Assembly (NCBI GenBank): GCA_017991375.1 | Contig: JAGOQP010000004.1 | Coordinates: 6,499 to 70,498, forward strand | DNA: 64,000 nt | Direction: 5' to 3' | DNA from: Minisyncoccota bacterium | GTDB taxonomy: Bacteria; Patescibacteriota; Minisyncoccia; UBA6257; JAGOQP01 | In this document: positions 9,841-64,000 of the stretch, piece by piece | Numbering within the stretch: the first letter of the stretch is position 1 | Layout of the letters: every line of letters starts with the position of its first letter | Position numbers and translations under genes: made by a program | Notes under the pieces: model-generated | Told to the model about the DNA's origin: nothing | What the model saw: only the letters and a program-made list of their open reading frames with translations | The model's database searches: none

Positions 9841-9878
9841 TTGACCCCTTTTTTCACGATCGTGAAAAAAGGGGTCAA
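9841..9878. repeat. 38-bp perfect palindrome, copy 1 (TTGACCCCTTTTTTCACGATCGTGAAAAAAGGGGTCAA)
   Basis: Exact palindrome. It has the 5' flank tcatcacccat, which is shared with copy 3. It lies about 50 nt upstream of a TGnTATACT extended -10. Confidence 0.9.
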
Positions 9879-10661: not shown

Positions 10662-10704
10662 AAACCATGCTTTCAGCACATTACAAATATTATATCTACC
10701 ATCT

Positions 10705-15363: not shown

Positions 15364-15419
15364 GATAAAACTACAAGTAAATGAGATACAAAAAACCACT
15401 CGACATCTGAATATTCTCC

Positions 15420-15457
15420 TTGACCCCTTTTTTCACGATCGTGAAAAAAGGGGTCAA
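15420..15457. repeat. 38-bp perfect palindrome, copy 2
   Basis: Identical to copy 1 over all 38 bp. It lies between the nuclease stop (15363) and the 15528 gene. Confidence 0.9.
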
Positions 15458-15527
15458 AAACCGACAAGACCAATGAGCACACCGGCGATCAAACAATCAA
15501 CACACCAACTATTAAAATAAAATCCCT

Positions 15528-16091: not shown

Positions 16092-16129
16092 TCACCACCA
16101 TACTCTGCTTATTTTGTGTCATCACCCAT

Positions 16130-16167
16130 TTGACCCCTTTTTTCACGATCGTGAAAAAAGGGGTCAA
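16130..16167. repeat. 38-bp perfect palindrome, copy 3
   Basis: Identical 38 bp plus the shared 5' flank tcatcacccat, as in copy 1. It lies 39 nt after the stop of the 15528..16091 gene. Confidence 0.9.
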
Positions 16168-16359
16168 AGAATACACATAACACGCATAAAGCGGTGCGAT
16201 ATAAAACTGGTGGGTATAGCAACTATTTCTGTTCCGATAATAAGCGTAAGAAAACACACTCTAGATTTTTTTGAGTGTTGTTCACTTGCGATATTTCCAC
16301 ACGTTTTAGAGAACAGATTTTGATAACACTGGAAAAAACGATTATATTTTACTCCTTGT

Positions 16360-29390: not shown

Positions 29391-30530
29391 CTATGTGATT
29401 ATTTTTATTATGATTTCATAGAGCACATATACCATACTCACCACAAAAACCCCTCGCATAATAATCATCCACCAAGAAGGGATTTTCCCCGCGATAGGAA
29501 CGTTAGATTCTTTTTTGTGTTTGTTCCACATACATATAATCATAAGCCCCTCAAGAGATACAAATATGCCGCCCGCAACCTCTAGTAGTTGCACGAGAGA
29601 CCCGAGATGAGCCATGTATATCGCCACCGGGATAAACACCGTGACAATCCCCGCTATCCACGAAGAAAGGGAAACATCATGCTCAAGTGATTTTTTGACA
29701 TCTTGCGCGACCGCGATGTAAGAAGTTATAACCGCCAAAATTCCCAGAACTCCCAGAAGGACCTGCGCCCACGCAGGCACCATAAGTCCACTGATGGTAT
29801 CTTGGGTTACTTTTTCTGAGGCACCAATAACTCCTATCACAAATAACACATACACCAACGCCGCAGATATGGTTCCTATAATAATCGCTTTCCTTATTCT
29901 TTTTTTCCGCTCACCTTCTTCACCACCATATGCTACCACGCTTGGAATCGCCGGCCGCCCATTGAGCGCGAAAAGAATAACTCCAAATGGCACTAGCAGA
30001 GACACGATGGAATTACCCATCACAGGAATACTCGCGTGCACGTCACTTGTTATTCCGTATATCACCACCATACCAACAATCATCATCATCCCCACAACCG
30101 CGATTGTTTCTACTATGCTCACCGCTCTTACGCTCATATATGCCGCGATTGACCCGCCTATCCAAAAAAGTATTGCTCCGTATACGCTCCACTCCGATGG
30201 TAGAATAATCTTAAAAAAATCGACTGCGAAAAGAATATATATAGCTAGCACAAAAAGCATGTGCACAATTGTCATCGCTATCGCTCCCGTATATCCTTTT
30301 TTCCCCATGTACTTTTTTGCCACCCCCGCGAATCGGTGTTGATGCCCAATATCCGCAACCACATCCGCATACATCGTATGGATTGAAACCATCAACGCGG
30401 TGAACAACACCGCGGCCGCCGACGCTACAACGATTCCCGCCTTGGTGCTTACGTATGGTAGGGCAAAGATGCCGGCCCCGATAATGGTGCCGGCAAGTAA
30501 TGCCGCTGGAATAATAGTCGTTTTTATCAT
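29391..30530 (-). CDS. amino-acid permease (aromatic/hydroxy amino acid permease-like)
   Basis: About 11 TM helices. The N-terminal GTIIGAGIFALPY matches the GAGMLALP signature of Trp/Tyr-type permeases. Confidence 0.5.
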   Translation of the reverse strand: MIKTTIIPAALLAGTIIGAGIFALPYVSTKAGIVVASAAAVLFTALMVSIHTMYADVVADIGHQHRFAGVAKKYMGKKGYTGAIAMTIVHMLFVLAIYILFAVDFFKIILPSEWSVYGAILFWIGGSIAAYMSVRAVSIVETIAVVGMMMIVGMVVIYGITSDVHASIPVMGNSIVSLLVPFGVILFALNGRPAIPSVVAYGGEEGERKKRIRKAIIIGTISAALVYVLFVIGVIGASEKVTQDTISGLMVPAWAQVLLGVLGILAVITSYIAVAQDVKKSLEHDVSLSSWIAGIVTVFIPVAIYMAHLGSLVQLLEVAGGIFVSLEGLMIICMWNKHKKESNVPIAGKIPSWWMIIMRGVFVVSMVYVLYEIIIKIIT

Positions 30531-30533
30531 AGC

Positions 30534-31184
30534 TTATTGATCTTGAGAACCAAATTCTTGTGTGATGACTTCATCGTCACTCTGCGTCTGTACCTCTTCC
30601 CTTTCTTGTTTAATAAGTTCTATAACTTTTTGCACCAATTCTTTGGGATCTGATGAGTATACAATTTTCCCTCTCCCTCGGTGTGATTTTGCAATCATGT
30701 CTTTTATAATATCGTCTGTCTCCCATGGTCCCTCTAAAACACCGATTGGCTTGTGATCTTCAAACGCGATAGTAAATTCGTTAAGCGTGCCTAAGCGTCC
30801 GCATCCAATAATAACCGCGTCAGTAGATCTAGTTAAGATCAGGTTGCGCCCAGAATAGCCAAATCCGGTGTATACGATAAGATCGTGATATTCAGATGGC
30901 AATTTATATACCCTTACATGTTCTTTGAATGTCGCCGCCGGCGAAAAACCTATAACCAGCCCGCCCTCTTCCTTTGCTCCTTTGGAGGCGAGAAAGGGGA
31001 ATCCCGTCGTTGCCCCATCAACAAGTAGCGCCCCCTGGCGTACAATTTCTTTTCCAATTTCCGTTGCCTGAACAAACGCACGATCGCCGCAATGAGATGT
31101 TTCAGCTGCTCCTGATACGCATATACGATATTTGGGAACCGCAAGATTGATATTTGAGTGGTTAATCACCGTGTTTTTTTCCAT
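30534..31184 (-). CDS. TIGR00725/LOG-like Rossmann-fold nucleotide-binding protein
   Basis: ICVSGAAET...GALLVDGATTG...IGFSP...GCGRLGTLNE is the COG1611/LOG-family pattern. An acidic C-terminal tail is present. Confidence 0.55.
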   Translation of the reverse strand: MEKNTVINHSNINLAVPKYRICVSGAAETSHCGDRAFVQATEIGKEIVRQGALLVDGATTGFPFLASKGAKEEGGLVIGFSPAATFKEHVRVYKLPSEYHDLIVYTGFGYSGRNLILTRSTDAVIIGCGRLGTLNEFTIAFEDHKPIGVLEGPWETDDIIKDMIAKSHRGRGKIVYSSDPKELVQKVIELIKQEREEVQTQSDDEVITQEFGSQDQ

Positions 31185-31188
31185 ATTT

Positions 31189-32559
31189 TTATAATTCTAC
31201 CACGCTCCCCGCGCGGGGGACAGATGCATCAATTGCAAACGTATCTCTTATTTTTGCCGCTAGAGGTTCACTCTGGTCCAACTCTCCTTGAACAACAAAA
31301 ACTTTCTTGACTGAATTACGCATTGATTCGATCCATTTAATAAGTAACGGCTGGTCAGCATGAGCAGAATATCCTCCAATTGCTCTTACTCGACAACGGA
31401 CTGGAATTTTTTCTCCAAAAATAGTCACTGAGGGCGTCTTATCTATAATTCTTCTTCCTAGTGTCCCCTCTGACTGGAATCCTACAAAGAGAATTGTGCT
31501 CTGAGGATCTGATAAATACCTCATCTCGTGATGTAGAATTCTCCCCCCATTTGACATACCAGATCCGGCGATAATAACTTTTGGTGGGAGCACATTGTTT
31601 ATTTCTTTTGATTCTTCTTTGGTGAGCGTGAAGTGAAGCCCGCTGAAATTAAATATTTCCCCTTCTTTTCTCAGTTTTGCAATTGCTTCTTTATCAAAGT
31701 ATTCTGGGTCATCCGCGTATTTCTGGTATACCGACGTAAGCTTTATCGCTAACGGACTATCAATATACACGGGTACCCGCGGGATGCGCCCGTGCTCAAT
31801 AAGGTCATTTATCTCATACAACAAGTCCTGCGTGCGCTCTAGCGCAAATGCCGGAATCATAAGCGTTCCTTTTAGTCGTACCGTGTCTTCAATAAGGTCT
31901 TCTAAGATATTTTTTCTCTCTTCTACTGATTCATGGACTCTATTTCCATACGCCGATTCGATGAGCGCGTAGTCCGCGTCGGCAATGTACTCCGTATCCT
32001 TAACGAGCGGAGCGGGAATGTTCCCTAAATCGCCCGAAAAAACAATCTTTTTCCCCTCTGCTTCTACCACAATCGATGCTGATCCTAAAATATGTCCTGA
32101 GTTAAAAAATTTTATGCCAAAAGGACCAACTGAAAATGATTCGTGGTACCGCACTGTTTTCCAGTGACTCATCGCGGTATCTATATCATCAATGGTATAC
32201 AATGCGGGATGAGTTTCGGTCGCGTCGTGCTCCATAAGATGGTGAGCATCTAACAATAATTCATACGCGGAGTCGTGTGTGGGTGGCGTTGAATAGATTG
32301 GCCCCGTATATCCTTTGCTTATTAACTGCGGAATGCGTCCTATGTGGTCTATGTGACCGTGTGTTACTAATACCGCACTAATCTTTTTGGGATCAAAAGC
32401 AAATCCATTTTCATTTACTCGTCGTGCGTCATCTTGTCCTTGGTGCAATCCACAATCAATAAGGATACTCATATCATCGCTTTGGAGTAGATAGTTTGAT
32501 CCAGTCACCTCTTGTGCTCCTCCCAGAAATGTTAATTTCATAGTTGTTTTTTTGACCAA
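31189..32559 (-). CDS. beta-CASP family metallo-beta-lactamase ribonuclease (RNase J/CPSF-like)
   Basis: LTFLGGAQEVTGSNYLL...ILIDCGL and the HGHIDHIG (HxHxDH) motif are present, along with downstream beta-CASP motifs (D, H, H). Confidence 0.65.
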   Translation of the reverse strand: MVKKTTMKLTFLGGAQEVTGSNYLLQSDDMSILIDCGLHQGQDDARRVNENGFAFDPKKISAVLVTHGHIDHIGRIPQLISKGYTGPIYSTPPTHDSAYELLLDAHHLMEHDATETHPALYTIDDIDTAMSHWKTVRYHESFSVGPFGIKFFNSGHILGSASIVVEAEGKKIVFSGDLGNIPAPLVKDTEYIADADYALIESAYGNRVHESVEERKNILEDLIEDTVRLKGTLMIPAFALERTQDLLYEINDLIEHGRIPRVPVYIDSPLAIKLTSVYQKYADDPEYFDKEAIAKLRKEGEIFNFSGLHFTLTKEESKEINNVLPPKVIIAGSGMSNGGRILHHEMRYLSDPQSTILFVGFQSEGTLGRRIIDKTPSVTIFGEKIPVRCRVRAIGGYSAHADQPLLIKWIESMRNSVKKVFVVQGELDQSEPLAAKIRDTFAIDASVPRAGSVVEL

Positions 32560-33758
32560 TAGTGATTAATTGCTTCGCGTACTACTTGGCTTTCTGACCA
32601 TGGTTGTTTTATCCCCCGCTGTAAACGAATGGAGGATTCTGACCCTTTTCCCGTGAACACAACCACATCTCCGCTAGCCGCCGTTTTCACCGCATACTGT
32701 ATTGCTTCTTTTCTATCAAGAATAAGCTGCGTATTTCCTTTGTATGTATTAGGAATGCCCCTTTTGATGTCTTTTATTATATTCATCGGATCTTCATCGA
32801 AAGGATCTTCATTAGTGAGAACAACAATATCACAGTAGCGAGACGCCACCTCCCCCATTCGTGGGCGCTTTGCACTATCGCGCCCTCCGCCCGCAGAACC
32901 CAACACGCATATAAGTCGTGCCGATGGCGCCTTTTTTTCTCTGAGTAATTGATACAATCCCTCTAATGATTCTGGAGTGTGCGCGTAATCGACGACCGCG
33001 CGTATTGGTGTTGTGGTTATTACTTCCATTCTTCCCGGAACACCTGGAAATGTTTCTATCGCTCGCTGAATAGATTCATCAGCAATGTTCCATCGACGCG
33101 CGACCGCACACGCGGCGGCAGCATCTATTCTATTTTCTCCCTCTAATGATTCTGGGATGCGCCACGACGAAGGAATGTCTTCTTTTTGAAATTGATGCAC
33201 TAGGTGATTTCCCGCCGCCTCTATAAAGTGTGTTGATTCTTTGTCTTTTGCGTACACAAAAAAATGGGGATGTCTGCTATACACATCTTTGGCAACATAT
33301 GAGAAGAATTCTTTTTTGGCGTCTCTGTATCTCTCAAAAGACCCGTGACTTTCGATATGTTCGGGATGGATGCCTAAAAACACCGCATCATCCCAAGGAA
33401 TATATAAGTGTCGATACTGCGTAACTCCTTGAGACGTAACCTCGGTAATGGCAAAATCACATTTTTGTCTTTGTGCTCGCATGAGCCATCTTTTTACAAA
33501 CGCCCTGCCTGGCATCGTGTTTCCGGTCATGTTTGGCGTTTCTACCACGTCCACGCAGATACGCGCCGTGGAAAGAGAGGCGGTTTTATATCCCGCGGTC
33601 TTAAATATATGCTCTACTAGTGCCACCGTTGTCGTCTTCCCCTTCGTGCCCGTTATCCCAATAATGCGCATCGGCGATTTAGTGTTTAACAAAAAAGAGC
33701 TGATGATACTCCAGCTATAATGATATGCGTTTTTTACTATAGTGCGTAATGATTTCAT
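32538..33758 (-). CDS. Mur ligase family protein
   Basis: GITGTKGKTTT is the Mur-ligase P-loop, and the middle domain is present. The probable true start is the MRIIGITG Met, about 87 nt inside the track ORF. The exact substrate cannot be assigned by eye. Confidence 0.6.
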   Translation of the reverse strand: MKSLRTIVKNAYHYSWSIISSFLLNTKSPMRIIGITGTKGKTTTVALVEHIFKTAGYKTASLSTARICVDVVETPNMTGNTMPGRAFVKRWLMRAQRQKCDFAITEVTSQGVTQYRHLYIPWDDAVFLGIHPEHIESHGSFERYRDAKKEFFSYVAKDVYSRHPHFFVYAKDKESTHFIEAAGNHLVHQFQKEDIPSSWRIPESLEGENRIDAAAACAVARRWNIADESIQRAIETFPGVPGRMEVITTTPIRAVVDYAHTPESLEGLYQLLREKKAPSARLICVLGSAGGGRDSAKRPRMGEVASRYCDIVVLTNEDPFDEDPMNIIKDIKRGIPNTYKGNTQLILDRKEAIQYAVKTAASGDVVVFTGKGSESSIRLQRGIKQPWSESQVVREAINHYWSKKQL

Positions 33759-33760
33759 TT

Positions 33761-34345
33761 TTATTTGCCTGCCAACGCGCGGAGCGCCTGCTTTACCTGC
33801 TCTTCTATGGTATGCGTGTCTTTGTGTATGTGTTCTATTGCCGTCTTGATATCACTCCGCGCATATCCCAAACGCGCAAGTACTTGTTCAACCTCTTTGT
33901 GCGCGCGTGGCACCCCTGAAACGACGATGCCTTCTTTTTTTAGACGCTCGTTGAGTTCGATAATTATTTTTGATGCCACTTTCTCGGTAATACCACACAC
34001 CGCTGAAAGAGATTTTGGTTCGCGACACATAATCGCCGCGTGAATGTCTTGAATTGAGGCGCTGTTTAGTATCTTAAGCGCACCTCGTGGTCCAATACCC
34101 GATACTAAGTTAAGCAATTCAAAGAGCCGCATCTCTTCTTCGTGCTCAAACCCGAATAGTTGAATTGTTTGTGGATATAACCAGGTAAATAACGATGTTT
34201 CTTCTCCTATTTTTGTTCTTTGTGCTTTATCTTTCAATACCTGCACCGCGATCCCGATACCGGCGATAGAAATAACTACTGCGTCTTCATTTTTAGCAAT
34301 ACACGGACCCGTAATTGAATATACCATTGATGATGCTGTAACCAT
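33761..34345 (-). CDS. ruvA: Holliday junction branch migration protein RuvA
   Basis: An N-terminal OB fold (VYSITG...IGI) is followed by tandem HhH motifs (LLNLVSGIGPRGALKIL...) and a C-terminal domain III. Confidence 0.85.
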   Translation of the reverse strand: MVTASSMVYSITGPCIAKNEDAVVISIAGIGIAVQVLKDKAQRTKIGEETSLFTWLYPQTIQLFGFEHEEEMRLFELLNLVSGIGPRGALKILNSASIQDIHAAIMCREPKSLSAVCGITEKVASKIIIELNERLKKEGIVVSGVPRAHKEVEQVLARLGYARSDIKTAIEHIHKDTHTIEEQVKQALRALAGK

Positions 34346-34436
34346 TAGCAGTATTATACGGCTTTTGTTTTGATGTGTACATTGACTTAGTTATTTTATT
34401 GTAGTACTATGCCATCCGTTACTAGATACTTATTTT

Positions 34437-34706
34437 ATGCCTAAAATACAATCCGCTCGGAAAGCGCTCCGTCAAAATGCCCGCCGGCGTGCTCAAAACA
34501 GCGCTCGTAGAAACGCGCTTAAAAAAGTGGTCAAGGAATTCAAAAAACTCACCACTGAAAAGCAATTATCAGAAGCCCAGCGCGCCTTAGAAGCTGTGTA
34601 CGCCATGGCCGATAAAGTCGCCAAGACACACGCTATCGCAAAAAACAAGGCGTCGCGCGTTAAATCACGCATGGCCACGCTGCTCAAAAAAGCATCGTCA
34701 CGGTAA
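34437..34706 (+). CDS. rpsT: 30S ribosomal protein S20
   Basis: MPKIQSARKALRQNARRRAQNSARRNALK... is the characteristic S20 basic helical N-terminus. The protein is 89 aa. Confidence 0.9.
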   Translation: MPKIQSARKALRQNARRRAQNSARRNALKKVVKEFKKLTTEKQLSEAQRALEAVYAMADKVAKTHAIAKNKASRVKSRMATLLKKASSR

Positions 34707-35534
34707 TATAAATGAAAGTAACGCTTGATCCGGATCTAATAGTCCGGATTTTAGTTTCCTGTCTATTTCTAAAAGTTTTTTTGTATGCTCTGGGGATTGT
34801 ATGGCTTTTGCTATATAATTTAATACTGCAGCTGGTTCAATTCGCGTATACATTATGCGTTCTCCTATTGCTAATACCGTTTCTTTGTGCCTTTGTTGTA
34901 TCGCACGCACAAGCTCTCCACTTGTTGCTGTTTTTTTATACTCATACAACTGGTCGAGTTCTTTCTCTGTTATATTTTTCCCGAGCAGAGCGAGACGATC
35001 TATTTCATTTTCAACCGCACTCATGTCATACCCAATAACACGACTCCCTATTTTTTGAGCTCCGCATGTGTCGCAGACACGCGTGACTGACGCATTGTCT
35101 ATGTGCATATTTTTATCCTGAGCTCTTTTTTTTATATATTCTATAATCGTCTTTCTGTCATACGGCATGTGCCGCTCCGTTTTGTACGCATACTCTTTGA
35201 GTATTTTCCCCACGGGACTCATTTCTTGGGACTTAGTAGTTCTGCTGGCGATGATAAGCATTACTTCTTGCGCATCTCGCGCGCATGAAAGATTCTTTTT
35301 AAGCTCCTCTTCATCTGTGATGGTATATACATTTTTAACCGTTATAATCCTCCGCTGAGCACCAAATATACTTCTGGATACTATATGTTCGTACAGCTTT
35401 TCCTTCGCATCATCTTCTTGGCCATCAATAACAAAAAGAGCGCTTTCTGGGTAACGTTTTTGCAGTTGTTGTGTTAATTCTCTAGCACGGTGGGAGATCG
35501 CATGCTCGTTATCCCCCCATATTAATACCACCAT
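34698..35534 (-). CDS. DNA polymerase III delta subunit (HolA)-like
   Basis: 278 aa, beginning VVLIWGDNEH, with an AAA+-like delta N-domain and helical C-domain pattern. Size and position next to rpsT and ruvA are consistent. Moderate confidence only. Confidence 0.45.
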   Translation of the reverse strand: MVVLIWGDNEHAISHRARELTQQLQKRYPESALFVIDGQEDDAKEKLYEHIVSRSIFGAQRRIITVKNVYTITDEEELKKNLSCARDAQEVMLIIASRTTKSQEMSPVGKILKEYAYKTERHMPYDRKTIIEYIKKRAQDKNMHIDNASVTRVCDTCGAQKIGSRVIGYDMSAVENEIDRLALLGKNITEKELDQLYEYKKTATSGELVRAIQQRHKETVLAIGERIMYTRIEPAAVLNYIAKAIQSPEHTKKLLEIDRKLKSGLLDPDQALLSFILP

Positions 35535-35599
35535 GGCCGTATTGTACGCCGCTTGCTATGTGAGACGCAAGCAACATTCACTGATTCGCACGAAGTAGC

Positions 35600-36500
35600 C
35601 ACCGATCAACGCAGATTGTATGCAGTGCATTAAAATTTATAAAAAAATCAGCCCCGCTCCCGACGAATCGGGAATAGGGCTAAGGGTTCAAACCAAAGGG
35701 ATTGAAGTCCCGAGGGTCTTAGGATTGAGAGCTGACCTGTGTGTCCTCCGTAGCTTACGCGGAGGTGGACGACACGGCGAACGCGAACCCGTCGCCACGA
35801 GGCCACCTGACGCCAGGCCAGCCGTCGTATGCGCTGAGCCAGCGACCAGCGCCGTTACGGCGCGCGCCCAGCAAGCTCGGATCGCCTTCGGAGTTGTTGA
35901 TGGGCTCGTGCATGGCAACGATCGACCGCAGACCCATTGCTTCGATCTCCTCGTCCGTGAACTTCTCGCGGATGAGGCATGCGAGTTCGGCGTTGGGCTT
36001 TATGAGCTTGCGTATGAATGCATACATCCGAATGCTCCACGTGGTCCGATCGTTGTCCTCAAAGAGCATACCCTTGAGAATGGCCACCTGGGTGGTCACG
36101 CCGCTGGTCGGCGTGAAGTATGGGCTTTGGAGCACCCGCTTGGCGTAGTCATCCACCCGAAAGCCCTTGAGTCGGGTGATCCACTCCTCGCCGGTCGTGC
36201 CGTCCGAAGTGACGGAGAAGTAGATGATGCCGTCTTCCTCGCGCCACGGGTGGGGTGGTTCGCACACCACAATCTCGCCGCGGAGAAAACGGAGCGCCAT
36301 GTCGTGGCCACCGAGCTTCTTGACGATGGCGTTGAGTTGGCCGGCAGTGAGGCCGGCTGATGCGAATTCTCTACTCATAGTTATCTCTCCCTTCCTTGGG
36401 GTGTTTTTCTCCTCTACGCCGAGGAGGCACTATGAGCTGGGTATAGTCATAGCAAGATGGGGCCTATGAGATAAGCCACATATTGCTATGACTATATGCG
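35600..36500. other. GC-rich (>60% GC) compositional island in a ~40% GC genome
   Basis: The composition shifts abruptly at about 35600 and about 36420. The island's single gene uses GC3-rich codons. A 13-bp-stem hairpin (36443..36495) lies at the right edge, and a hairpin plus T-run lies at the left edge (about 35650..35690). Confidence 0.6.
35755..36378 (-). CDS. hypothetical protein (207 aa) encoded on GC-rich island
   Basis: MSREFASAGLTAGQLNAIVKKLGGHDMALRFLRGEIVVCEPPHPWREEDGIIYFSVTSDG... is a complex globular sequence. A good SD (ggaagggagag) sits 6 nt upstream. The overlapping plus-strand ORF 35620..36360 is Arg/Ala/Gly-rich antisense. Confidence 0.6.
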   Translation of the reverse strand: MSREFASAGLTAGQLNAIVKKLGGHDMALRFLRGEIVVCEPPHPWREEDGIIYFSVTSDGTTGEEWITRLKGFRVDDYAKRVLQSPYFTPTSGVTTQVAILKGMLFEDNDRTTWSIRMYAFIRKLIKPNAELACLIREKFTDEEIEAMGLRSIVAMHEPINNSEGDPSLLGARRNGAGRWLSAYDGWPGVRWPRGDGFAFAVSSTSA

Positions 36501-36572
36501 TGTTTTATAAAAGAACTATAGATGCGTTATACACCTAAAGGATGTGTTTGTCAAGCAGTAAAAATTCGTTTA

Positions 36573-37895
36573 TCACTCCGTTTCTGTTAGCTCCTTTTTG
36601 GGAATTAGTTGTGGATCCGTGGGGAGCGTTAAGTAGAAAACCGATCCTCTGTTTATTTCCGATTCCGCCCATATACGTCCTCCATGTCGTTCAATAATGT
36701 TTTTGGTAATATATAATCCCAATCCAGATCCATCTGACATCGTTTTTACCGCATTCTCGGCGCGGAAAAATTTGGTAAATAACTTTTCTAACTCTTCCTT
36801 CGATACGCCTATCCCCGTATCTTTGATGCTTATTCTTATAAATGATTTGTCTTCTTTTTCAATAGACACGGTCACCGTTCCATTTTCAACATTGTATTTA
36901 ATCGCGTTGTCTAACAGGTTGAAAAATGCCATGCTCAATTTTTGTGGGTCAATGTATACACGCGGCAACGCTTCTTGTGGTCGGTTGAAATATAATTTTA
37001 TTCCGTATTGCTTTGCCGTGTCGTTTATCTGAACAAGAACTTCTTCTACAAACGAGATGATGTCTTTTTCCTCGAATTGATAGCCAAATTTTCCCTCTTC
37101 TATTTTCGATATATCAAGCAGATCGTTTACTGTCTTGAGCATTTTTTTGGCAGCTAAAAATCCCGTGTTTACTAACTCTTTTTGTTGAGGCGCGAGCGAT
37201 TCTTCTCTTTCCAATGCTTCGAATGTCCAGTTAACCGCGGTGAGCGGCGTACGAAGTTGATGCGCCGCAACAGTGATAAAATCGGTTTTTGATTTTAGTA
37301 GTTGGGCCTCACGCGTTTTGTCGGTTATAATTTTTACAAATCCACCTGGTGACTCATCGCTCTCGATGACACGATCTGTTATTACTCGAAGTTCCAATTT
37401 GGGATTATCAAACGATATATCAACTACTTGTGGATACATACCAGGATCTGAGTGTTTTACCACCACTGGAGCGAGTGACGAAAATATTACCTGCGCGAGC
37501 GTTCGCAATGCCGGATCGGATGCCATTGCCGCCGTGATAACCTTTCCTATAACCTGATTTTCTTGTAGTCTAAATATTTCTTGCGCCGCTTTGTTGAATA
37601 TCAATATCTTAAATGACTGGTCATACGCAATAACCCCATTGGCAAGATTAGTAAACACACTCTCTACCTGCTGTGTTTTTGTTCTGAGTTCAACGCTCGC
37701 GCGTGTTAGCTTTAAACTAAGTCCCAGGAGAATGGAAATGATAACAACTATAATGGCTGGCGCCACTACTCTGAGTATTCCTTGGCCATATATCCCATCA
37801 AGAATTGCAACCACCACCGCTAGGGGCGTTAAATAAAGAGCTGGCCTAAATTCGGGCTGGTTTAGATATTTTATTTTTGTTGTTTGAGATACCAT
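36573..37895 (-). CDS. sensor histidine kinase (two TM, PAS-like, HisKA, HATPase_c)
   Basis: AAHQLRTPLTAVNW is the H-box. N, G1 and G2 boxes are present (LLDNAIKYN, DTGIGV, GSGLGL). No response regulator is nearby. Confidence 0.8.
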   Translation of the reverse strand: MVSQTTKIKYLNQPEFRPALYLTPLAVVVAILDGIYGQGILRVVAPAIIVVIISILLGLSLKLTRASVELRTKTQQVESVFTNLANGVIAYDQSFKILIFNKAAQEIFRLQENQVIGKVITAAMASDPALRTLAQVIFSSLAPVVVKHSDPGMYPQVVDISFDNPKLELRVITDRVIESDESPGGFVKIITDKTREAQLLKSKTDFITVAAHQLRTPLTAVNWTFEALEREESLAPQQKELVNTGFLAAKKMLKTVNDLLDISKIEEGKFGYQFEEKDIISFVEEVLVQINDTAKQYGIKLYFNRPQEALPRVYIDPQKLSMAFFNLLDNAIKYNVENGTVTVSIEKEDKSFIRISIKDTGIGVSKEELEKLFTKFFRAENAVKTMSDGSGLGLYITKNIIERHGGRIWAESEINRGSVFYLTLPTDPQLIPKKELTETE

Positions 37896-39092
37896 TTATT
37901 CCAGTGAATACTGATATAGCCGATCGTCGTATCGATTGATAAAGTAGAGATTATTTCCAACGTGCTGAATGGCATAAACATCGAGCATTGTTTCTCCAGA
38001 GTCCAGTATGGTATCAACAGATTTTTTTTCTACATCAAGACGCACCACAGTATCTTTGGTATATGTTGCTCTTTTGTTTATGTCGTCTGGCCACATAACC
38101 GTTCCCTCTTTTGAAGCCGCGTATGGAATCGCACACCATACCAATGCGTTTTCCCCAAACGCACACTTCTCTTTTATAGTCGAAAATGCCGCGTCAACAA
38201 TTGACGTTCCAATTGTGTCTATGATTCGCACCTGCATCGATCGTCCGTTATTACTCTTAAAAAGCATTGCCCGCGTTCCATTGGTATCCCATATAACTTG
38301 AATCCCATTGCCGCTATCTAAAACCGACGCTGTTTTATTTTTTATATTAAACTGGACTATTGACGCTTCGGTTTTATAGGAGGACCGTGGTGCTAGCGTT
38401 ATTACGTCTTTTGCCCCCCATATTATGTTCACATCTTGAATCGCCAGCGTTGTTATTGGTGTTGGTTTTTTACTTCCCGCTGGACTCTGACGAATATATA
38501 TCGTTTTTTCTGAAGCGCTCGTTTTGCTTAATAGAGCAATCTGAGTACCATCTGGAGAGAATGCAACTGATATCACATCAGGGCTGAGCCATTCCCATGT
38601 TTTTTTAACTCCATCAAAAAGGACCTTTTGTCCATTTTCTAATGTTATGACCGCGTATGGTTTCCCTAAAGCTCCTATAACCGATTGTGCCGTTTGATTT
38701 GCGAGAGAGAGTACTACCTGATGGGTACTCGTACCCGTGCCAGAGAAAATATCAACATTTTTTGTCGCATACCAAAGGATAGGCGTGCTCGTCGGAGATT
38801 GTTTTGAAAACCAATATCCGACAATGTTTTTATCTGAAACAATACTTAGACGCTTTTTTTGATTCTCATAGAATTCCAAAAGGTCTTTTTCTGTTATGTC
38901 GTTCTCCTGCGTTGCCCCTCCTCCGCCTTGATATCCAGAAGATGTAATAGGAAGCACGCTGTTGTTTTTTTGCCCACCCTCCGAAATGGTAAGAGTTGCT
39001 CTTTGTAGCCCAACATATACACCAACACCAATTGCTCCTATAATAGCAACAACTATCACGCTTATAATTATTCTTTTTCCTTTTTGATTCAT
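37896..39092 (-). CDS. membrane-anchored beta-propeller protein (PD40/TolB-like repeats)
   Basis: One N-terminal TM, then beta-rich repeats including FSPDGTQIA (PD40 signature). It is the last gene of the T4SS-like operon. Confidence 0.5.
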   Translation of the reverse strand: MNQKGKRIIISVIVVAIIGAIGVGVYVGLQRATLTISEGGQKNNSVLPITSSGYQGGGGATQENDITEKDLLEFYENQKKRLSIVSDKNIVGYWFSKQSPTSTPILWYATKNVDIFSGTGTSTHQVVLSLANQTAQSVIGALGKPYAVITLENGQKVLFDGVKKTWEWLSPDVISVAFSPDGTQIALLSKTSASEKTIYIRQSPAGSKKPTPITTLAIQDVNIIWGAKDVITLAPRSSYKTEASIVQFNIKNKTASVLDSGNGIQVIWDTNGTRAMLFKSNNGRSMQVRIIDTIGTSIVDAAFSTIKEKCAFGENALVWCAIPYAASKEGTVMWPDDINKRATYTKDTVVRLDVEKKSVDTILDSGETMLDVYAIQHVGNNLYFINRYDDRLYQYSLE

Positions 39093-39098
39093 ATAGTA

Positions 39099-39929
39099 TT
39101 ACAAACATCCCCCAGAGAGCACATCCCAATGATCTCCCTCGAGCGCGTAGATGGCACCTGTTGATGGGTTTTTATATTTCTTCGCCCCATCACTTGGACG
39201 AATCCCGACGTATGTAAAGTTTCCTTCTATGTACTGCTTTAGTGACTCATTGAGCCGCAGATCAACCTTCCACCCATTTTGATGCGAGCACACCCCTATC
39301 GAGTGATTACCTTCTGTCCCTGATGTTATAAATACTTCACACCCTGATCCTTGGCAATTTTGTTTAAGATTTATTATTTCGTTGATAATCGACTGCTTTA
39401 GGCCTCCCAACAACGTGCATCCTGTTGTTTGTCCTTCTTGGCATTGTGGTTTTGCTTCAACGCCACCAGCTTGGAGTCTCTGACGTACCGCGGCATCATC
39501 GCCCCCTGTTGCCGGTGTTTGATTGACTCCCGTTGAAAGATCTCCTGGTTTCACTTTTAGCTGTGTGAGGCCTGGATTTATTGTATTAAGAATAAGATAT
39601 GCCCCAAATAAAAGAAGTATGCCTATTATCGCTTCTTCAATTATTTTTCTCGCGTCGGCCAGTTTAGCGGGCGCCCCTTGGTTAAACACAACCATCAGTC
39701 CTCCATATACAATACGAATGATCGCAAGCGCCCCTGCTACTCCCAACGCGTATATATATATTTTATTCACAAAATCCGCTGGGTTTGTCGCACTAGCAAA
39801 ACTAGGGAATCCAAACTCAACATAGGTTGTTGATGCTGTGACCGATGAAGCGGCCTGGGCAGATGTCGCTGCTAACATAGCCCATACTACTACAATCATT
39901 CTTATTATGTCCGCTTTTGTTTTCATCAT
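39099..39929 (-). CDS. VirB2/TrbC-like pilin with Cys-rich C-terminal extension
   Basis: A long signal peptide is followed by two hydrophobic helices (IYIYALGVAGALAIIRIVYGGLMVVF / AIIGILLLFGAYLILNTI) separated by a short charged loop, as in conjugative pilins. An ~120-aa C-terminal domain with 8 Cys follows. Confidence 0.45.
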   Translation of the reverse strand: MMKTKADIIRMIVVVWAMLAATSAQAASSVTASTTYVEFGFPSFASATNPADFVNKIYIYALGVAGALAIIRIVYGGLMVVFNQGAPAKLADARKIIEEAIIGILLLFGAYLILNTINPGLTQLKVKPGDLSTGVNQTPATGGDDAAVRQRLQAGGVEAKPQCQEGQTTGCTLLGGLKQSIINEIINLKQNCQGSGCEVFITSGTEGNHSIGVCSHQNGWKVDLRLNESLKQYIEGNFTYVGIRPSDGAKKYKNPSTGAIYALEGDHWDVLSGGCL

Positions 39930-40633
39930 TGCTCTATTCTAAAATTAACGGCACGAGATGCTTGTTCTAGCTCGTCGGTTCTGCTTTGCGCGTTTGCGGT
40001 TACTTTTATGCCCTGTCCTATAATCGGTTCTTTTATCCCGACCTCCAATGCAAAGGGAGCGTTTTCGTTTGTTGTCACTTTCGTACTATTGATCGCCCAC
40101 CTCATGGCTAGATCTGCATTCTTCGTGTTGAAGAAGAATGGGAATGCGTTAACCCGTATCGCTACCGGCGATGTATTTTTTATTATTCTTGTTTTTGTCT
40201 CCAATACCAACTCGGGTTCACCTAGTGGAATTTTAAAAAACGTTCTTACAAATGATGCGTTTTGTGTTTGTGCGTCTTGGTAGTTAAACTCAACCTGTAC
40301 TTCAAGATCTAGCCCTCTAAATAGCGTTCCGGGAATTTCTATTGATTTTTTACCCACGCCTTTTTCAAGGAGCGAGTCATTTACATACCAACGTACCTCA
40401 CTTTTTTTAAGATCGATAAACTTTCCCTTATCTTGTGGATTTTGGCTGATTGCTTCGATAGAGGCCGTGACCGTTGCTTGATCGCTTGGGATATGTTTTC
40501 CTTCAAACCATAGCGGCGCGTTGTTGTTCGCGTGCCATGTCACTATGAAATGCGGCTGAGCGGCGTATGTATGCGTCGTAACCACTAACAACCACATCGC
40601 CCCTAATATTACTACAGCATTAGACCATTTCAT
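39926..40633 (-). CDS. secreted hypothetical protein (T4SS-associated)
   Basis: 235 aa with a signal peptide (MKWSNAVVILGAMWLLVVTTHTYAA). Its stop overlaps the next start by 4 bp within the operon. Confidence 0.4.
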   Translation of the reverse strand: MKWSNAVVILGAMWLLVVTTHTYAAQPHFIVTWHANNNAPLWFEGKHIPSDQATVTASIEAISQNPQDKGKFIDLKKSEVRWYVNDSLLEKGVGKKSIEIPGTLFRGLDLEVQVEFNYQDAQTQNASFVRTFFKIPLGEPELVLETKTRIIKNTSPVAIRVNAFPFFFNTKNADLAMRWAINSTKVTTNENAPFALEVGIKEPIIGQGIKVTANAQSRTDELEQASRAVNFRIEQ

Positions 40634-40666
40634 GTGGTTTAGTATAACACATTTTTATAGTTTGTG

Positions 40667-41206
40667 TTATTTTTTTAGTATTTTCCCCTTAATTTTCATT
40701 ACGTCGGCTGCGTGACCGAATGTCTTTTTAAACGATTCGGGGTTGTTCGTCTGCCATATAGTGAGCACTGCCGCTACCGTGCTGATCGGAAGCCATCCAA
40801 CAAATGGAACCATTTCCGTTAATTGAGCAACGATGTTCTTCCCAATCGCGGCGTCAACTCCTTTTAGGTATAACCACGCGACCGTCGCGGGCCCAAACAC
40901 TACCCGCGTTACCCAAATGGAGTCCCCCAAATCTCCAATAACAGCCATAGACACGTACAAAAAAATATCGACACCATCAAAACGGGCACTATTTTGTCTT
41001 GGTTTATCGCTGTCTAAAGAGTTTTCTTCTTCCTCGTCTGTATCTTTTCCCTCGTTATCTTCTTCGTCCTCCTCGTCATTATCGTATTCCTCTAATTCGC
41101 TCTCGTCGTTTATTTTCGTATTTTTTTCTCCTTCATCCACGCTCGCATCCCCTTTTTTCAAAAGGGTTTTATTTTCTTCTTTCTCCATCTTTTCCGATTG
41201 AACCAT
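40667..41206 (-). CDS. hypothetical protein with acidic N-terminus and C-terminal hydrophobic helices (T4SS-associated)
   Basis: The N-terminal ~70 aa are D/E-rich (EEYDNDEEDEEDNEGKDTDEEEE). The C-terminal half has 2-3 hydrophobic segments. Confidence 0.4.
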   Translation of the reverse strand: MVQSEKMEKEENKTLLKKGDASVDEGEKNTKINDESELEEYDNDEEDEEDNEGKDTDEEEENSLDSDKPRQNSARFDGVDIFLYVSMAVIGDLGDSIWVTRVVFGPATVAWLYLKGVDAAIGKNIVAQLTEMVPFVGWLPISTVAAVLTIWQTNNPESFKKTFGHAADVMKIKGKILKK

Positions 41207-41208
41207 AA

Positions 41209-42963
41209 CTAAACCAGTTGCGCTTCTTCTCCGAGAAGTTGTTGCGGTTTTGTGGTTACCACCTTGTCTTCAAAGAATGACGCGACTACTTGCATCGCCA
41301 CATGCTTGAGGCCCGCAAAAAAGAGTCCCTGCCCCACTCCGGCTTCTAGCAATAGATTCTTTTCCGCTTCGGTGAGATTGAATGTTTTTGCGACTACATC
41401 AACACTCGCTGGAGCTTGTTTAAGCAGTAATTGCAGTGATGAGTTTGTGATAATTGGCTTTCCGTACGGAGAACTAAGAAAATCTTCAACCTCTTGCGTG
41501 ATTGTTGTGAGTCCTAGGTAGTATTTGCGACCCCTTTTTGCCAAACTGAATAAAAACGCGGCTCCCTCGGGATATTTCATCATAACCCACGCTTCATCGA
41601 TAACCAGAATACGACGCTTCAACTGAGAACGTACTAGATTCCAGATGAAATTCAAAATGACGTACATTGCAATAGGACGAAGCTCTTCATCTAGATCGCG
41701 AATCGAAAACACCACTAGACGGTTGTTGATGTCTATGTTTGTTTTTTGGTTGATAAAGCCCGAATAGGTCCCCTGCGTGAATCGGTAGAGTTTTTCCGCC
41801 ATTATTCGCCCGCCTTCCATGTTGCGCAACACTGTTTCAAAGTCAGAAAGACGCGGGGGTTCCATGTTCAAGAAATTCGGATTTTCAGGAGTGATGTCAA
41901 ATGACGCATATGTCTCCGTTAGTGCTCTGTCTAAAATGGCTTCTTCTTCAACGGAAATGTCGCCAAGCATAATTTTCATCAAACCCGTCAGCGTGAGAAT
42001 GTTTGACTTAAACACGTCTGCCGGGTCTTCCCCAGGGGGAACTTTTGGAATATCAAAAGGGTTTATATGCTGATCGGAGGTGAGGGATACTTTAAAGTAC
42101 GTTCCTCCTACGGTGTCACATAAATTTTTGTACTCATCTTCCGGATCAATAACCAACACCTCGGTCCCCACCATAAGAGATCGCAGTATTTCCAATTTAG
42201 TCGCGTATGATTTTCCAGATCCGGATTTCGCAAATACAACCTGGTTTCCATTTTCGAGAGAAAAGCGATCAAAAATAACTAGTGTGTTATTGTGTTGATT
42301 TATACCGTACAGTATTCCCGTTTCCGACGTGAGATCCATAGACACAAATGGAAAAAATGACGACGCTGGGCCAGAGTTGAGAGGCGTTTTGATTTGAAGT
42401 TTATCATTCCCCAGCGGAATGGTTGAGATAAACCCTTCTACTTGTTGGAATATTGCTGGTTTTATGTAGATGAGTTTACTTTCGAAGATGTTATTGATAA
42501 TTTCTTCAAGTTCGTTGAGTTTCTCTATGGTGTCGGCATAGATGGTTACATACACTGCCGTTTCAAAGAGCCGTTCGCGCGCTTGTTGCAAGTTGTCTCG
42601 AAGCGCTTCCACATCGGAAAAAGCCGTCTCCAACATAGGGTCGCGTACGAATCCCTTTTCTTCTCTATCGGAAAGCTCTGCTTCTATTTGAGCGGCTTTT
42701 TTCCTCAGGTTTTTCATTGCTAGAGCTGTATCAACCGGATGCACGAAAATAGAGACATCAAAGAGCTTTGCCATATTCACGATTGGAGAAAACCACCCAC
42801 TGGATAGAAAGCGGGGATATGAGAACACAAACATCGTTTTGGCAAGTTTATTTCCTATTTTGATGTGATCGTGCTCAACCTCAACCGCCGCAGGAGCGAG
42901 GAGATTTTGCGTCTCTTGTTTATCTTGGTTGTTATATGGCTTTTGAAGACGGATGTCGTCCAT
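41209..42963 (-). CDS. virB4: VirB4-family type IV secretion ATPase (C-terminal ATPase portion)
   Basis: The Walker A is FAKSGSGKSY and the Walker B is LVIDEAW. Arg-finger regions and the TrbE/CagE-like C-terminus are present. It lacks the ~200-aa VirB4 N-domain. Confidence 0.8.
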   Translation of the reverse strand: MDDIRLQKPYNNQDKQETQNLLAPAAVEVEHDHIKIGNKLAKTMFVFSYPRFLSSGWFSPIVNMAKLFDVSIFVHPVDTALAMKNLRKKAAQIEAELSDREEKGFVRDPMLETAFSDVEALRDNLQQARERLFETAVYVTIYADTIEKLNELEEIINNIFESKLIYIKPAIFQQVEGFISTIPLGNDKLQIKTPLNSGPASSFFPFVSMDLTSETGILYGINQHNNTLVIFDRFSLENGNQVVFAKSGSGKSYATKLEILRSLMVGTEVLVIDPEDEYKNLCDTVGGTYFKVSLTSDQHINPFDIPKVPPGEDPADVFKSNILTLTGLMKIMLGDISVEEEAILDRALTETYASFDITPENPNFLNMEPPRLSDFETVLRNMEGGRIMAEKLYRFTQGTYSGFINQKTNIDINNRLVVFSIRDLDEELRPIAMYVILNFIWNLVRSQLKRRILVIDEAWVMMKYPEGAAFLFSLAKRGRKYYLGLTTITQEVEDFLSSPYGKPIITNSSLQLLLKQAPASVDVVAKTFNLTEAEKNLLLEAGVGQGLFFAGLKHVAMQVVASFFEDKVVTTKPQQLLGEEAQLV

Positions 42964-60953: not shown

Positions 60954-61100
60954 TTACTTTTTTCTTCGCACCGCGAGCTTTTTTCGTCCCTTAGCTCGCC
61001 TACGCGAGAGCACTTTCCTTCCCGGGGCTGTTTTCATTCGTTTTAAGAACCCGTGTGTTTTTGATCTCTTTTTTTTCTTTGGTCTGTATGTTAATGACAT
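60954..61100 (-). CDS. rpmH: 50S ribosomal protein L34
   Basis: The minus strand was hand-translated as [48 protein letters not shown] (48 aa). It is not in the ORF track because it is below the size cut-off. This is the classic L34 sequence. Confidence 0.85.
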
Positions 61101-61169
61101 AGTTTTTTCATACTATCACCTTTTTTTCTGAATAACAACCTTTGGCGTGCTATTTGCGTCTCTCTTTAT

Positions 61170-61200
61170 TTTTTGTTATCCACACCTTATTCACACCCGC
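61170..61200. promoter_or_regulatory. DnaA boxes upstream of dnaA (rpmH-dnaA spacer)
   Basis: TTATCCACA is at 61176..61184 (perfect). TTATTCACA is at 61187..61195 (1 mismatch). Confidence 0.6.
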
Positions 61201-61314
61201 AACCTTGTTGCCACTTTTATTTGTTTCCTGTTTGGATTACAATACAAACGCTCCTGTTGTTTTTTATAAAAACCCGCATTATTACTATCTTATTTTTTAT
61301 ACCTTTTTTAAATC

Positions 61315-63946: not shown

Positions 63947-63949
63947 TTT

Positions 63950-63983
63950 ATCACACACCCCCGCTCATGCGGGGGTGTGTGAT
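63950..63983. terminator. perfect 15-bp-stem hairpin after dnaN
   Basis: atcacacacccccgc-tcat-gcgggggtgtgtgat. There is no clear U-run on the plus strand (followed by aaaaa), so its function is uncertain. Confidence 0.3.
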
Positions 63984-64000
63984 AAAAACTAATTTGATAG

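Follow-up and report, generated by a model that had tools for sequence, protein, structure and literature searches.

A GC-rich gene between holA and a histidine kinase gene

The window, the whole 64-kb stretch of DNA that was analysed, contains a sharp GC island at 35640-36555, between holA and a histidine kinase gene (GC of 0.53-0.65 versus about 0.40 in the flanks). In 200-nt windows, the GC content, at first 0.40-0.47, rose to 0.53-0.65 between about 35600 and 36400 and then fell to 0.36-0.41, and no other 1-kb bin of the window exceeded 0.49. An earlier note on this DNA had described such a jump over about 0.9 kb followed by a drop, and it was seen again at both resolutions. The single convincing ORF reported there also exists. 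It lies on the minus strand at 35755..36378, follows a Shine-Dalgarno sequence and encodes 207 aa, with GC1, GC2 and GC3 of 0.58, 0.48 and 0.78. The GC3 of the neighbouring genes is 0.34-0.41, and that of the island ORF is about 8.6 SD above the mean of the 46 other ORFs of at least 150 aa (0.402 ± 0.044, maximum 0.519). An antisense ORF on the plus strand (35620..36360) was rejected as a gene; its length was equalled in 34% of synonymous shuffles, so it is a by-product of the GC-richness. The conserved unit extends from a -35 box (36549-36554) to the T-run of a terminator (about 35640). Its leader has a GC content of only 0.44, and the GC-rich part consists of the CDS and the 3' hairpins.

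The gene belongs to a family of Patescibacteria DGR targets

The 207-aa protein has 1981 homologous clusters (E ≤ 1e-3), and the best homologues are 70-78% identical. All homologues with a source name come from Patescibacteria, and all of the 80 genome loci kept for analysis are from Patescibacteria-type MAGs. The family gene lies upstream of a template repeat (TR), bAvd and a reverse transcriptase (RT), the parts of a diversity-generating retroelement (DGR), at 41 of the 72 classifiable loci. A copy was called cassette-linked when an Avd and/or RT match was found within 2.5 kb; the 79 gene copies analysed comprised 41 cassette-linked, 31 orphan and 7 unclassifiable ones. At L001-L003, the order was the homologue, a spacer of about 330 nt, the TR, bAvd (PF22296, opposite strand) and an RVT_1 RT. 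The variable repeat (VR) and the TR of the relatives form pairs of about 130 nt with 87% identity, with 10-24 mismatches at TR adenines versus 0-2 elsewhere. The TR is rich in AAC codons, and its adenines are distributed over codon positions 1, 2 and 3 as 11, 18 and 1. In the family alignment, most of the N-terminal 165 or so residues vary little or not at all, the C-terminal scaffold is hypervariable, and the hypervariable columns include those matching the VR. In conclusion, the family gene is the hypervariable-protein target of Patescibacteria-specific DGRs.

Searches of Pfam, NCBIfam, PHROGs and PADLOC with the 207-aa protein gave zero matches, which agrees with the earlier remark that it has no obvious motif. 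Against PDB sequences, the single protein gave no match, and a profile of 129 sequences gave one spurious Ig match only (E = 0.005). The AF2 model reached a pLDDT of 94.7 with 129 diverse sequences and 49 with 34 close homologues. For a C-type-lectin (or Ig) fold, on which DGR variable proteins would be expected to display the VR, no significant match was obtained: the best Foldseek E values were 0.09 (PDB) and 0.03 (BFVD), with TM ≤ 0.28, and the weak matches were mostly C-type-lectin-like domains. The model places the variable residues in C-terminal beta-strands, and the scaffold motif ends in ...GFAF, which we take to resemble the ...GFR endings of CLec VRs. The variable proteins of the family appear to lack signal peptides and known domains, consistent with PMC8144416. 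Their binding partners would bear on the interaction of ultra-small episymbionts with hosts or phages.

The window VR carries adenine-specific changes

Comparison with the family consensus TR places the VR of the window gene at 35770..35892 on the minus strand, about residues 163-203 of 207. Relative to this TR, which is a family proxy (100% identical in four different genomes) and not this genome's own, the VR (last 123 coding nt) was changed at 18 of 28 adenine sites and at only 2 of 95 other sites (Fisher p = 1.2e-12). These adenine-specific changes indicate that the window VR was written by a DGR. The two non-adenine differences, a private A in TCCGAAGGC and a private A in GCGCATAC, may reflect a slightly different cognate TR or drift. 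We therefore regard it as highly probable that the GC island gene is a DGR-written variable-protein gene, a statement that concerns its identity and is separate from current activity.

A DGR works from a cassette with the TR, the accessory protein bAvd and the reverse transcriptase. The RT copies the TR RNA to cDNA, misincorporating opposite adenines, and this cDNA then replaces the VR, which forms the 3' end of the target gene. In this way some 17 codons become random on the C-terminal face, and the protein scaffold stays as it was.

The unit has a predicted promoter, a leader RNA and a terminator

The island would be a complete transcription unit, consisting of promoter, structured leader, CDS, target-recognition flank with hairpin, and terminator. 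From alignment with relatives, a sigma-70-like promoter is predicted on the minus strand at 36526..36554 (-35 TTGACA at 36549-36554, 17-nt spacer, -10 TATAAC at 36526-36531), 18 nt past the low-coordinate end of the histidine kinase gene (36573). Relatives of both kinds, cassette-linked and orphan, have TTGACA-17-TATGAT at this point of the alignment, which is also where homology to them begins. We infer that this element probably drives the module. The Shine-Dalgarno sequence, read directly as GGGAGAG at 36385..36391 (minus strand), lies 6 nt before the ATG; the relatives have AAGGAG. At the other end, an intrinsic terminator is assigned by fold and conservation to 35639..35683 on the minus strand, with an interrupted GC stem AGCCCTATTCCCGA-TTCG-TCGGGAGCGGGGCT followed by a T-run. 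Because of the interruption in the stem, it escaped a simple terminator scanner. The region lies within a fold of z = -3.65 and is kept in the relatives, some of which have stem changes, and homology to them stops at the T-run.

A structured 5' leader RNA with three hairpins was located at 36376..36517 on the minus strand by covariance model R1, which gave the window leader 99.3 bits (E 1.4e-26). Its helix 1 is a 13-bp stem at 36443-36495, and helix 3, which adjoins the Shine-Dalgarno sequence, is degenerate in the window copy. Among 48 sequences, 95.4% of the cells were paired versus 80.2% after shuffling and 35-44% when the pairing was slid. There were 157 double-change cells versus 47, and none of 500 shuffles reached 157. 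Both edge hairpins of the earlier note thus exist: the left one, which is the inner part of a longer interrupted stem, belongs to the conserved terminator, and the right one is helix 1 of the covarying leader. Rfam 15 gave no match at the leader in the window at E ≤ 1, none at gathering score for the leaders of L008, L010 and L012, and nothing meaningful at E ≤ 10 for the canonical leader.

The same leader was found in a second DGR-target family that is unrelated to the window family. A tentative reading, to which we give rather less than an even chance, is that this leader (about 140 nt) is a cis-acting RNA of an undescribed kind and a mark of DGR targets in Patescibacteria. It would precede at least two target families without detectable sequence similarity, whether cassette-linked or stand-alone, and would be either regulatory (riboswitch-like or protein-binding) or a means of coupling the target transcript to the retrohoming machinery. 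The GC3 offset described below would then follow from DGR-target status. A strongly covarying leader RNA common to unrelated target families offers a handle on the regulation of these proteins.

High GC is a property of the family

In many Patescibacteria lineages, at 70 of 70 loci, the family gene was GC-richer than its flanks. Its GC3 followed host GC with a slope of 0.94 and a constant offset of +0.27. The GC excess is therefore no mark of a high-GC donor. The RTs of the same cassettes are AT-rich (GC3 0.42). Between copies, four-fold synonymous sites are close to saturation and the bias persists. High GC is thus a maintained property of these target genes. Silent-site adenine drops from 0.15 to 0.03 towards the VR, and C occupies 41-47% of four-fold sites along the whole gene. 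Leaked DGR adenine mutagenesis was rejected as the sole cause of the bias; it fits the adenine gradient but not the C content. Possible causes of the offset are purging of sense-strand adenines and GC-biased repair of retrohoming or gene-conversion intermediates. A gene-specific compositional bias that is kept across hosts calls for a mechanistic explanation.

A 31-nt insert separates the VR from its downstream flank

No RT or Avd was detected in the 64-kb window (best tblastn E 0.035), and no TR or other repeat of the VR was found in it, with 28-35 kb covered on either side. The window copy is a remote or orphan target. A VR-downstream flank (AGGTCAGCTCTCAA..CTAAGA) at 35698..35738 on the minus strand is conserved in both cassette-linked and orphan copies. 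It ends in a small GC hairpin, GGGAC-TTCA-ATCCC (35698-35711), and by its conservation and by analogy with the phage BPP-1 site (PMC3240598) the flank with its hairpin is a candidate target-recognition element. Both the GC-rich end shared by VR and TR and the downstream hairpin are present and conserved in the family; in the window, an insert lies between the VR and the flank with its hairpin.

In the locus alignment, this insert is a lineage-specific, hairpin-forming insertion of 31 nt (35739..35769, minus strand) placed exactly at the 3' boundary of the VR. It supplies the stop codon (35755-35757), replaces the usual ...QVSSQx C-terminus and forms a long stem together with the end of the VR. 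The window contains it once, the other loci aligned lack it, and its 3' part is also present in a 97%-identical strain (L096). Different hairpin inserts were found at the same VR boundary in two other orphans, L029 and L064. The hairpin lies about 27 nt from the VR in canonical copies and about 58 nt in the window, and this distance, beyond the 4-34 bp range of phage DGRs, could impair homing. An origin of the insert from the sequence downstream of the TR was rejected, as the TR-flank hairpin (TCTCTCCGG..CTGGAGAG) differs. An exact 21-mer of the insert occurred once in JGI metagenomes, on an unrelated contig of 66% GC, which we judge to be chance or convergence; a window-specific 23-mer of the CDS had no match in metagenome_contigs.

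Origin and present status of the unit

A fully syntenic relative (L092-L095, four sequencing runs) has no island; only 53 nt separate the kinase stop from the holA start. The module is therefore a real, lineage-specific insertion. No flanking repeats of at least 40 nt and no adjoining mobility gene were found, and relatives of the family were absent from 2.9 M viral contigs (IMG/VR), leaving no sign of a viral vector. The 97%-identical strain has both the island and the private 31-nt insert, and identity to the nearest homologue is no higher than 78%; the acquisition was therefore not very recent. The earlier proposal of a recent acquisition from a high-GC donor, for example an actinobacterial host, is thus upheld as to the insertion but not as to donor or recency. 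The sharp compositional jump with a GC3 of 0.78 and the empty site in the syntenic relative would fit such a transfer. However, named homologues come only from Patescibacteria-type assemblies and none has an actinobacterial label, the RTs of the same cassettes do not share the high GC3, and both the offset from host GC at all loci and its persistence at near-saturated sites speak against a donor signature. We consider this origin extremely unlikely, and advise against reading host-to-epibiont transfer into a sharp, GC3-rich island of about 0.9 kb when a Patescibacteria genome contains one. Very little probability is likewise left for an assembly chimera, which the earlier note had also raised and in which a foreign contig of about 1 kb would have been joined between holA and the kinase gene. 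The family frequently assembles as contigs of about 1 kb, and three independent assemblies break at or near the module edges: L085 covers holA up to 35633, L004 covers 35511-36519, and L086 covers the kinase gene and the module's own promoter down to 36526. Nevertheless, L004 shares 123 nt with the holA side at 100% identity, the 3' part of the island is joined to holA also in the strain L096/L097, and the sole unbridged stretch (36520-36525) is enclosed on both sides by one unit, which has the same internal order in all relatives. A small mobile island with a defence or toxin gene could also account for a small protein of unknown kind in a compositionally odd region; the earlier note had proposed a check for toxin, Abi or DarT-like folds. 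We hold this to be most improbable: PADLOC and the three other databases had no match, no partner gene accompanies the ORF, in relatives the gene stands beside DGR machinery, and the family is missing from the viral contigs.

For the DGR target gene itself, we give about an even chance that it is still served in trans, by a cassette in another part of the genome; failing that, it would be a frozen variant. A precedent for trans-targeting is provided by VMFZ01, in which an orphan VR bears the imprint of its own genome's subfamily-specific TR (17 of 29 adenines and 5 of 97 other sites changed, p = 1.7e-9). The competing view, which we rate somewhat short of even, is that the gene is an orphaned relic. 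The DGR would have been lost from the genome, or the target made unrecognisable by the 31-nt insert, leaving a fixed binding variant or a gene in slow decay. This would agree with the lack of RT, Avd and TR matches in the 64 kb and with the insert exactly at the VR boundary, whose presence in the 97%-identical strain means that it is old. The window and contig L004 have identical VRs, so that assembly shows no population heterogeneity, and the window protein departs from 12 of 155 conserved columns (family median 4.5). On the other hand, the reading frame is unbroken, and conservation extends to the promoter, helices 1-2 of the leader, the Shine-Dalgarno sequence and the terminator. Decayed target-recognition flanks in orphans found no support in two tests (p = 0.15 and p = 1.0), the latter giving no more 3'-flank disruption in orphans than in cassette copies. 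The VMFZ01 imprint also argues against a relic, and the inserted hairpin beside the VR might even stand in for the displaced one.

Comparison with known DGR systems

The closest systems are the Patescibacteria (CPR) DGRs, 'clade 2' of Roux et al. 2021 (PMC8144416) and the 'CPR set' with architecture B3 of Wu et al. 2018 (PMC5758913), as described in the parts of these papers considered here. As in those, the cassettes of the relatives consist of target gene, TR, oppositely oriented avd and RT, and the targets are small, without recognisable Pfam or transmembrane domain, and have a C-terminal VR. Unlike those, the window copy has no cassette. In the same parts, CPR DGRs tend to have one adjacent target (PMC5758913), and the 2021 survey is said to be unable to detect remote targets (PMC8144416). 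These parts mention neither a GC3 offset nor a leader RNA common to different target families; the main paper on CPR DGRs, Paul et al. 2017 (Nat Microbiol), lies outside this comparison.

Remote targets were described for 45 of 372 DGRs, for example the TvpA paralogues of Treponema denticola (PMC5758913, in the part considered). In these, a VR-bearing gene far from the RT differs from the TR only at adenines, which implies action in trans, and the same-genome case VMFZ01 is the counterpart in the present family. In contrast to such targets, the window gene is compared with a family consensus TR, and nearly half of the family's sampled copies are stand-alone. With stand-alone targets this common (31 of 72 classifiable loci), targets are undercounted by any survey that looks only next to an RT. 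An island of the present kind allows a DGR variable-protein gene to be recognised even without a nearby reverse transcriptase.

At the Mtd site of the Bordetella phage BPP-1, the IMH and a hairpin/cruciform 4-34 bp downstream of the VR are required (Guo et al. 2011, PMC3240598). The family is similar in having a GC-rich end shared by VR and TR (GGGTTCGCGTTCGCCGTGTCG) followed by VR-specific sequence and then, about 27 nt on in canonical copies, by a short GC hairpin whose loop has 4 nt. It differs from BPP-1 in a stem of 5 bp instead of 7-10 bp, in a TTCA instead of a GRNA loop and, in the window, in the hairpin distance of about 58 nt. From the solved C-type-lectin-fold DGR proteins Mtd, TvpA, AvpA (archaeal, PMC5006420) and TaqVP (Thermus, PMC6328139), the family differs in having no significant sequence or structure match and in its N-terminal helical hairpin and three-helix insert, for which no counterpart was identified; the likeness to these proteins lies in the placement of the variable residues in C-terminal beta-strands.

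The island is a transcription unit with a stand-alone DGR target gene

The composition jump described in the earlier note was confirmed, and it is the only one in the window. GC content was 0.53-0.65 at ~35600-36400 (200-nt windows) versus 0.36-0.47 on both sides, and all other 1-kb bins of the 64 kb had a GC of at most 0.49. The only credible ORF in the island is a CDS of 207 aa (35755..36378, minus strand). Its codons are GC3-rich unlike those of its neighbours, as had been claimed (GC1/2/3 = 0.58/0.48/0.78, versus GC3 of 0.34-0.41 in neighbouring genes), and its GC3 lies ~8.6 SD from that of the 46 other non-overlapping window ORFs of at least 150 aa (0.402 ± 0.044, maximum 0.519). A plus-strand ORF of 246 aa was not meaningful, since an antisense frame at least as long arose in 34% of cases when the synonymous codons of the real gene were shuffled.

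The lack of an obvious motif in the product was also confirmed, with zero matches in Pfam, NCBIfam, PHROGs, PADLOC and PDB sequences. The protein search suggested in the earlier note found 1981 homologous clusters in a metagenome protein collection (best 70-78% identical, ~211 aa), and the source-named ones were all from Patescibacteria (Wolfe-, Giovannoni-, Uhr- and Harrisonbacteria, Minisyncoccota). In the first three long contigs of relatives (L001-L003), the homologue was followed by a ~330-nt spacer, a repeat of the gene's last ~130 nt, an oppositely oriented bAvd gene (PF22296) and a reverse transcriptase (RT; RVT_1). The repeat copies were 87% identical, and 16/17, 14/18 and 15/18 of the mismatches fell at adenines of the downstream copy. 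Such near-exclusive adenine mismatches define a diversity-generating retroelement (DGR), which makes the downstream copy the template repeat (TR) and the 3' end of the gene the variable repeat (VR). Wherever a cassette-linked locus had a clean pair, the VR differed from its own TR by 6-24 adenine mismatches and 0-2 elsewhere; the lowest adenine count, 6, came from one locus (L047), and the remaining pairs had 10-24. TR adenines were at codon positions 1 and 2 in 29/30 cases. The family protein alignment consisted of a ~165-residue N-terminal region, mostly invariant or nearly so, and a C-terminal scaffold with hypervariable positions (xPxLLxAxRxxxGRWLxAxx..PxxxWxRxxGFAFAV). In conclusion, the island gene is a stand-alone Patescibacteria DGR variable-protein gene, a newly found copy of a known kind of gene.

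The homology to cassette-linked and orphan relatives starts at the -35 box and stops at the terminator T-run in the alignment, which shows that the island is a whole transcription unit of ~915 bp. On the minus strand, it contains, in the direction of transcription, a promoter predicted from the sequence and the alignment with relatives (TTGACA 36549-36554, 17 nt, TATAAC 36526-36531), a 5' leader of ~140 nt (36376-36517), an SD (GGGAGAG, 36385-36391), the CDS, a small GC hairpin closing the conserved flank downstream of the VR (35698-35711), and a terminator of an interrupted GC stem and T-run (35639-35683). Both hairpins that had been noticed at the island edges exist, as parts of this unit: the left one is the inner part of the conserved terminator, and the right 13-bp stem is leader helix 1.

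The window VR and targeting in trans

Four different genomes (L009, L010, L011, L012) had a 127-nt TR (~+470 nt from the gene end) of 100% identical nucleotide sequence, and several others had it at 97% identity or more. Because it is conserved across genomes, it serves as a proxy template for the window VR, which lies at 35770-35892 (minus strand). The VR was changed at 18/28 adenine sites and 2/95 others (Fisher p = 1.2e-12); it was written by a DGR with essentially the sequence of the proxy TR. The RT of L009 shared at most ~61% protein identity with those of L010 and L012, so the template is either far more constrained than the enzyme or exchanged separately.

No RT or Avd was detected in the 64-kb window (tblastn with three of each; best E 0.035), and no second VR copy was found there. 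With the window ends 28 kb and 35 kb away, the gene is a stand-alone target. The 79 gene copies compared comprised the genome_contigs loci, the window and the first three contigs. In 41 of them, Avd and/or RT lay no more than 2.5 kb downstream; 31 had neither, with at least 2.5 kb of downstream sequence available, and 7 were unclassifiable. In VMFZ01, the subfamily-specific cassette TR (L028) differed from the adjacent VR at 18 adenines and no other site, and from an orphan VR on another contig (L053) at 17/29 adenines and 5/97 other sites (p = 1.7e-9). A copy without its own cassette can thus genuinely be targeted in trans. Targets away from the RT have been described in other DGRs (PMC5758913), and a large metagenome DGR survey is by design blind to them (PMC8144416). 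That the window gene is still diversified in trans is about equally probable as that it is not.

Target recognition by the Bordetella phage DGR requires the IMH and a hairpin/cruciform 4-34 bp from the VR (PMC3240598). The VR-downstream flank and hairpin of the island match these elements by position, and by analogy would function in target recognition. A 31-nt insertion private to the window lineage (35739-35769, minus strand) lies exactly at the VR 3' boundary. It brings a new stop codon, forms a long hairpin together with the end of the VR in the fold prediction, and pushes the conserved GC hairpin to ~58 nt from the VR. The insert may disable this putative recognition hairpin, leave it working or take over its role. 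Two orphans, L029 (~10616-10653) and L064 (~10628-10663), carry different hairpin-forming insertions at exactly the same boundary (31-39 nt in the three copies). Across the sample, orphans were not more often altered at this boundary than cassette copies (p = 1.0). Palindromes of the GCCTGCCGGCAGGCAGGC or TCCGCCA..TGGCGGA type were found elsewhere in the module in L024, L072, L084, L020, L014 and L018. The module may be especially prone to gaining small palindromic insertions or to forming quasi-palindromes.

A covarying leader RNA

Three hairpins were predicted by RNAalifold from 48 leaders, with 18/23 pairs staying paired through two-sided changes. For a fixed 25-pair structure, standard pairs occupied 95.4% of cells, versus 80.2% in column shuffles and 35-44% with slid partners; two-sided changes were seen in 157 cells versus 47 expected, which was matched in 0/500 shuffles. 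The covariance model R1 scored the window leader at 99.3 bits, with helix 3 degenerate there. The R1 leader precedes most family members, and no Rfam family matches it. Besides the window, three-hairpin copies were located in L012 (9859-10003), L087 (4881-5003), L088 (4888-5003), L039 (3772-3906), L024 (8271-8403), L026 (3909-4081) and L064 (19631-19749).

R1 also matched upstream of other small ORFs without significant similarity to the 207-aa protein. One such ORF family, of 618 clusters, is itself a DGR target. In L087 and L088, this second DGR-target family is accompanied by bAvd and RT and has VR/TR pairs of 126-132 nt; in L090 it occurs as a stand-alone copy. The other leader-preceded ORFs are likewise GC3-rich islands (GC3 0.63-0.78, flank GC 0.38-0.48). 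Three observations go beyond what was found in the accessible portion of the DGR literature and are worth follow-up: the covarying leader RNA shared between target families, a GC3 offset that stays constant, and the high frequency of stand-alone copies. Several further small GC3-rich ORFs behind the leader have C-termini resembling VR scaffolds. In L039, a truncated TR (3595-3644; first 50 nt, 94% identical) lies downstream of one target gene, and another leader with a 244-aa GC-rich ORF (3772-4638) stands where avd and RT would be, which looks like module replacement within the cassette.

Cause of the high GC and origin of the island

The GC content had been read as the signature of a high-GC donor. 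The gene was GC-richer than its flanks in 70/70 loci (mean +12.8 points), and its GC3 tracked host GC with a slope of 0.94 and an intercept of +0.27 (r = 0.45), which does not fit that reading. In the same cassettes, GC3 was 0.42 for RT genes and 0.68 for targets. The 4-fold sites of RT genes were saturated (identity 0.27-0.31, chance 0.25), and those of targets were slightly above their own chance level (0.40-0.43 versus 0.31); despite this near-chance identity, the target sites hold a composition of C 0.45, G 0.23, T 0.21 and A 0.10. Since GC3 tracks the host and the bias is kept at near-saturated sites, the genes equilibrate with each host under a maintained gene-specific bias. This is the reverse of what an un-ameliorated foreign segment would show; the earlier note observed the island correctly and gave an incorrect cause. 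Adenine at 4-fold sites was 0.15, 0.08, 0.07 and 0.03 by gene quarter, with C steady at 0.41-0.47. The bias could stem from selection acting on expression or on mRNA structure, from adenines being purged from the sense strand, or from GC-biased repair, either in retrohoming or in conversion between paralogous targets.

Recent horizontal acquisition was supported only in part. In a relative found in four runs (L092-L095; 50% identity in holA), whose gene order agrees on either side of the site, the kinase stop is followed by 53 nt and then holA, so the unit was inserted in the window lineage, unless it was deleted in the relative. Against a recent event, the 3' part of the island, together with that of the private insert, is also present in L096/L097, a strain with 97% identity over 7 kb, and the insertion thus predates that strain split. 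The nearest homologue anywhere had 78% protein and ~82% DNA identity, which means either that the donor has not been sampled or that the copy is old. None of the 2.9 M viral contigs searched carried a relative. A chimeric assembly, the other explanation offered, is made unlikely by independent contigs: L085 matches 29698-35633 and L004 35511-36519 (both 100% identity), and L086 matches 36526-40895 (99.98%), with its end falling inside the promoter of the module. Just six bases were not bridged by an independent contig, and these lie within the conserved unit.

Independently assembled contigs ended at or just inside the module edges in at least five runs (window 35633 in L085, 36519 in L004, 36526 in L086, 35750 in L096/L097), and many family members are known solely as ~1-kb contigs. 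This suggests that other copies in those communities have k-mers in common with the module, or that the populations are heterogeneous.

Protein structure

AlphaFold with a diverse 129-sequence alignment gave a confident model (pLDDT 94.7, pTM 0.83). It has a helical hairpin at the N-terminus and then a mixed alpha/beta domain, and the three final beta-strands are formed by the VR. Foldseek searches of PDB and BFVD gave no significant match (best E 0.09 and 0.03, TM at most 0.28). The weak matches in both lists were mostly C-type-lectin-like domains, and the C-type-lectin fold is typical of DGR variable proteins; such a fold is thus plausible for the modelled protein. No signal peptide or hydrophobic segment was seen in the sequence by eye, which agrees with the published remark that CPR DGR targets are without recognisable domains (PMC8144416).

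Other features of the window

A perfect ~40-nt palindrome (TTGACCCCTTTTTTCACGATCGTGAAAAAAGGGGTCAA) occurs three times (9830-9878, 15409-15458, 16119-16170), two copies forming an inverted pair 670 nt apart, and may be a bidirectional terminator or REP-like element. The lowest GC of the 64 kb (0.33-0.36) was at 61000-64000. Upstream of the kinase (~37896-42400), the neighbourhood is conserved, with weak T4SS-pilin matches in the window's own sequence (L086) and TraG/P-loop matches in the syntenic relative L092, which suggests a type-IV-secretion or competence-like cluster beside the two-component kinase.
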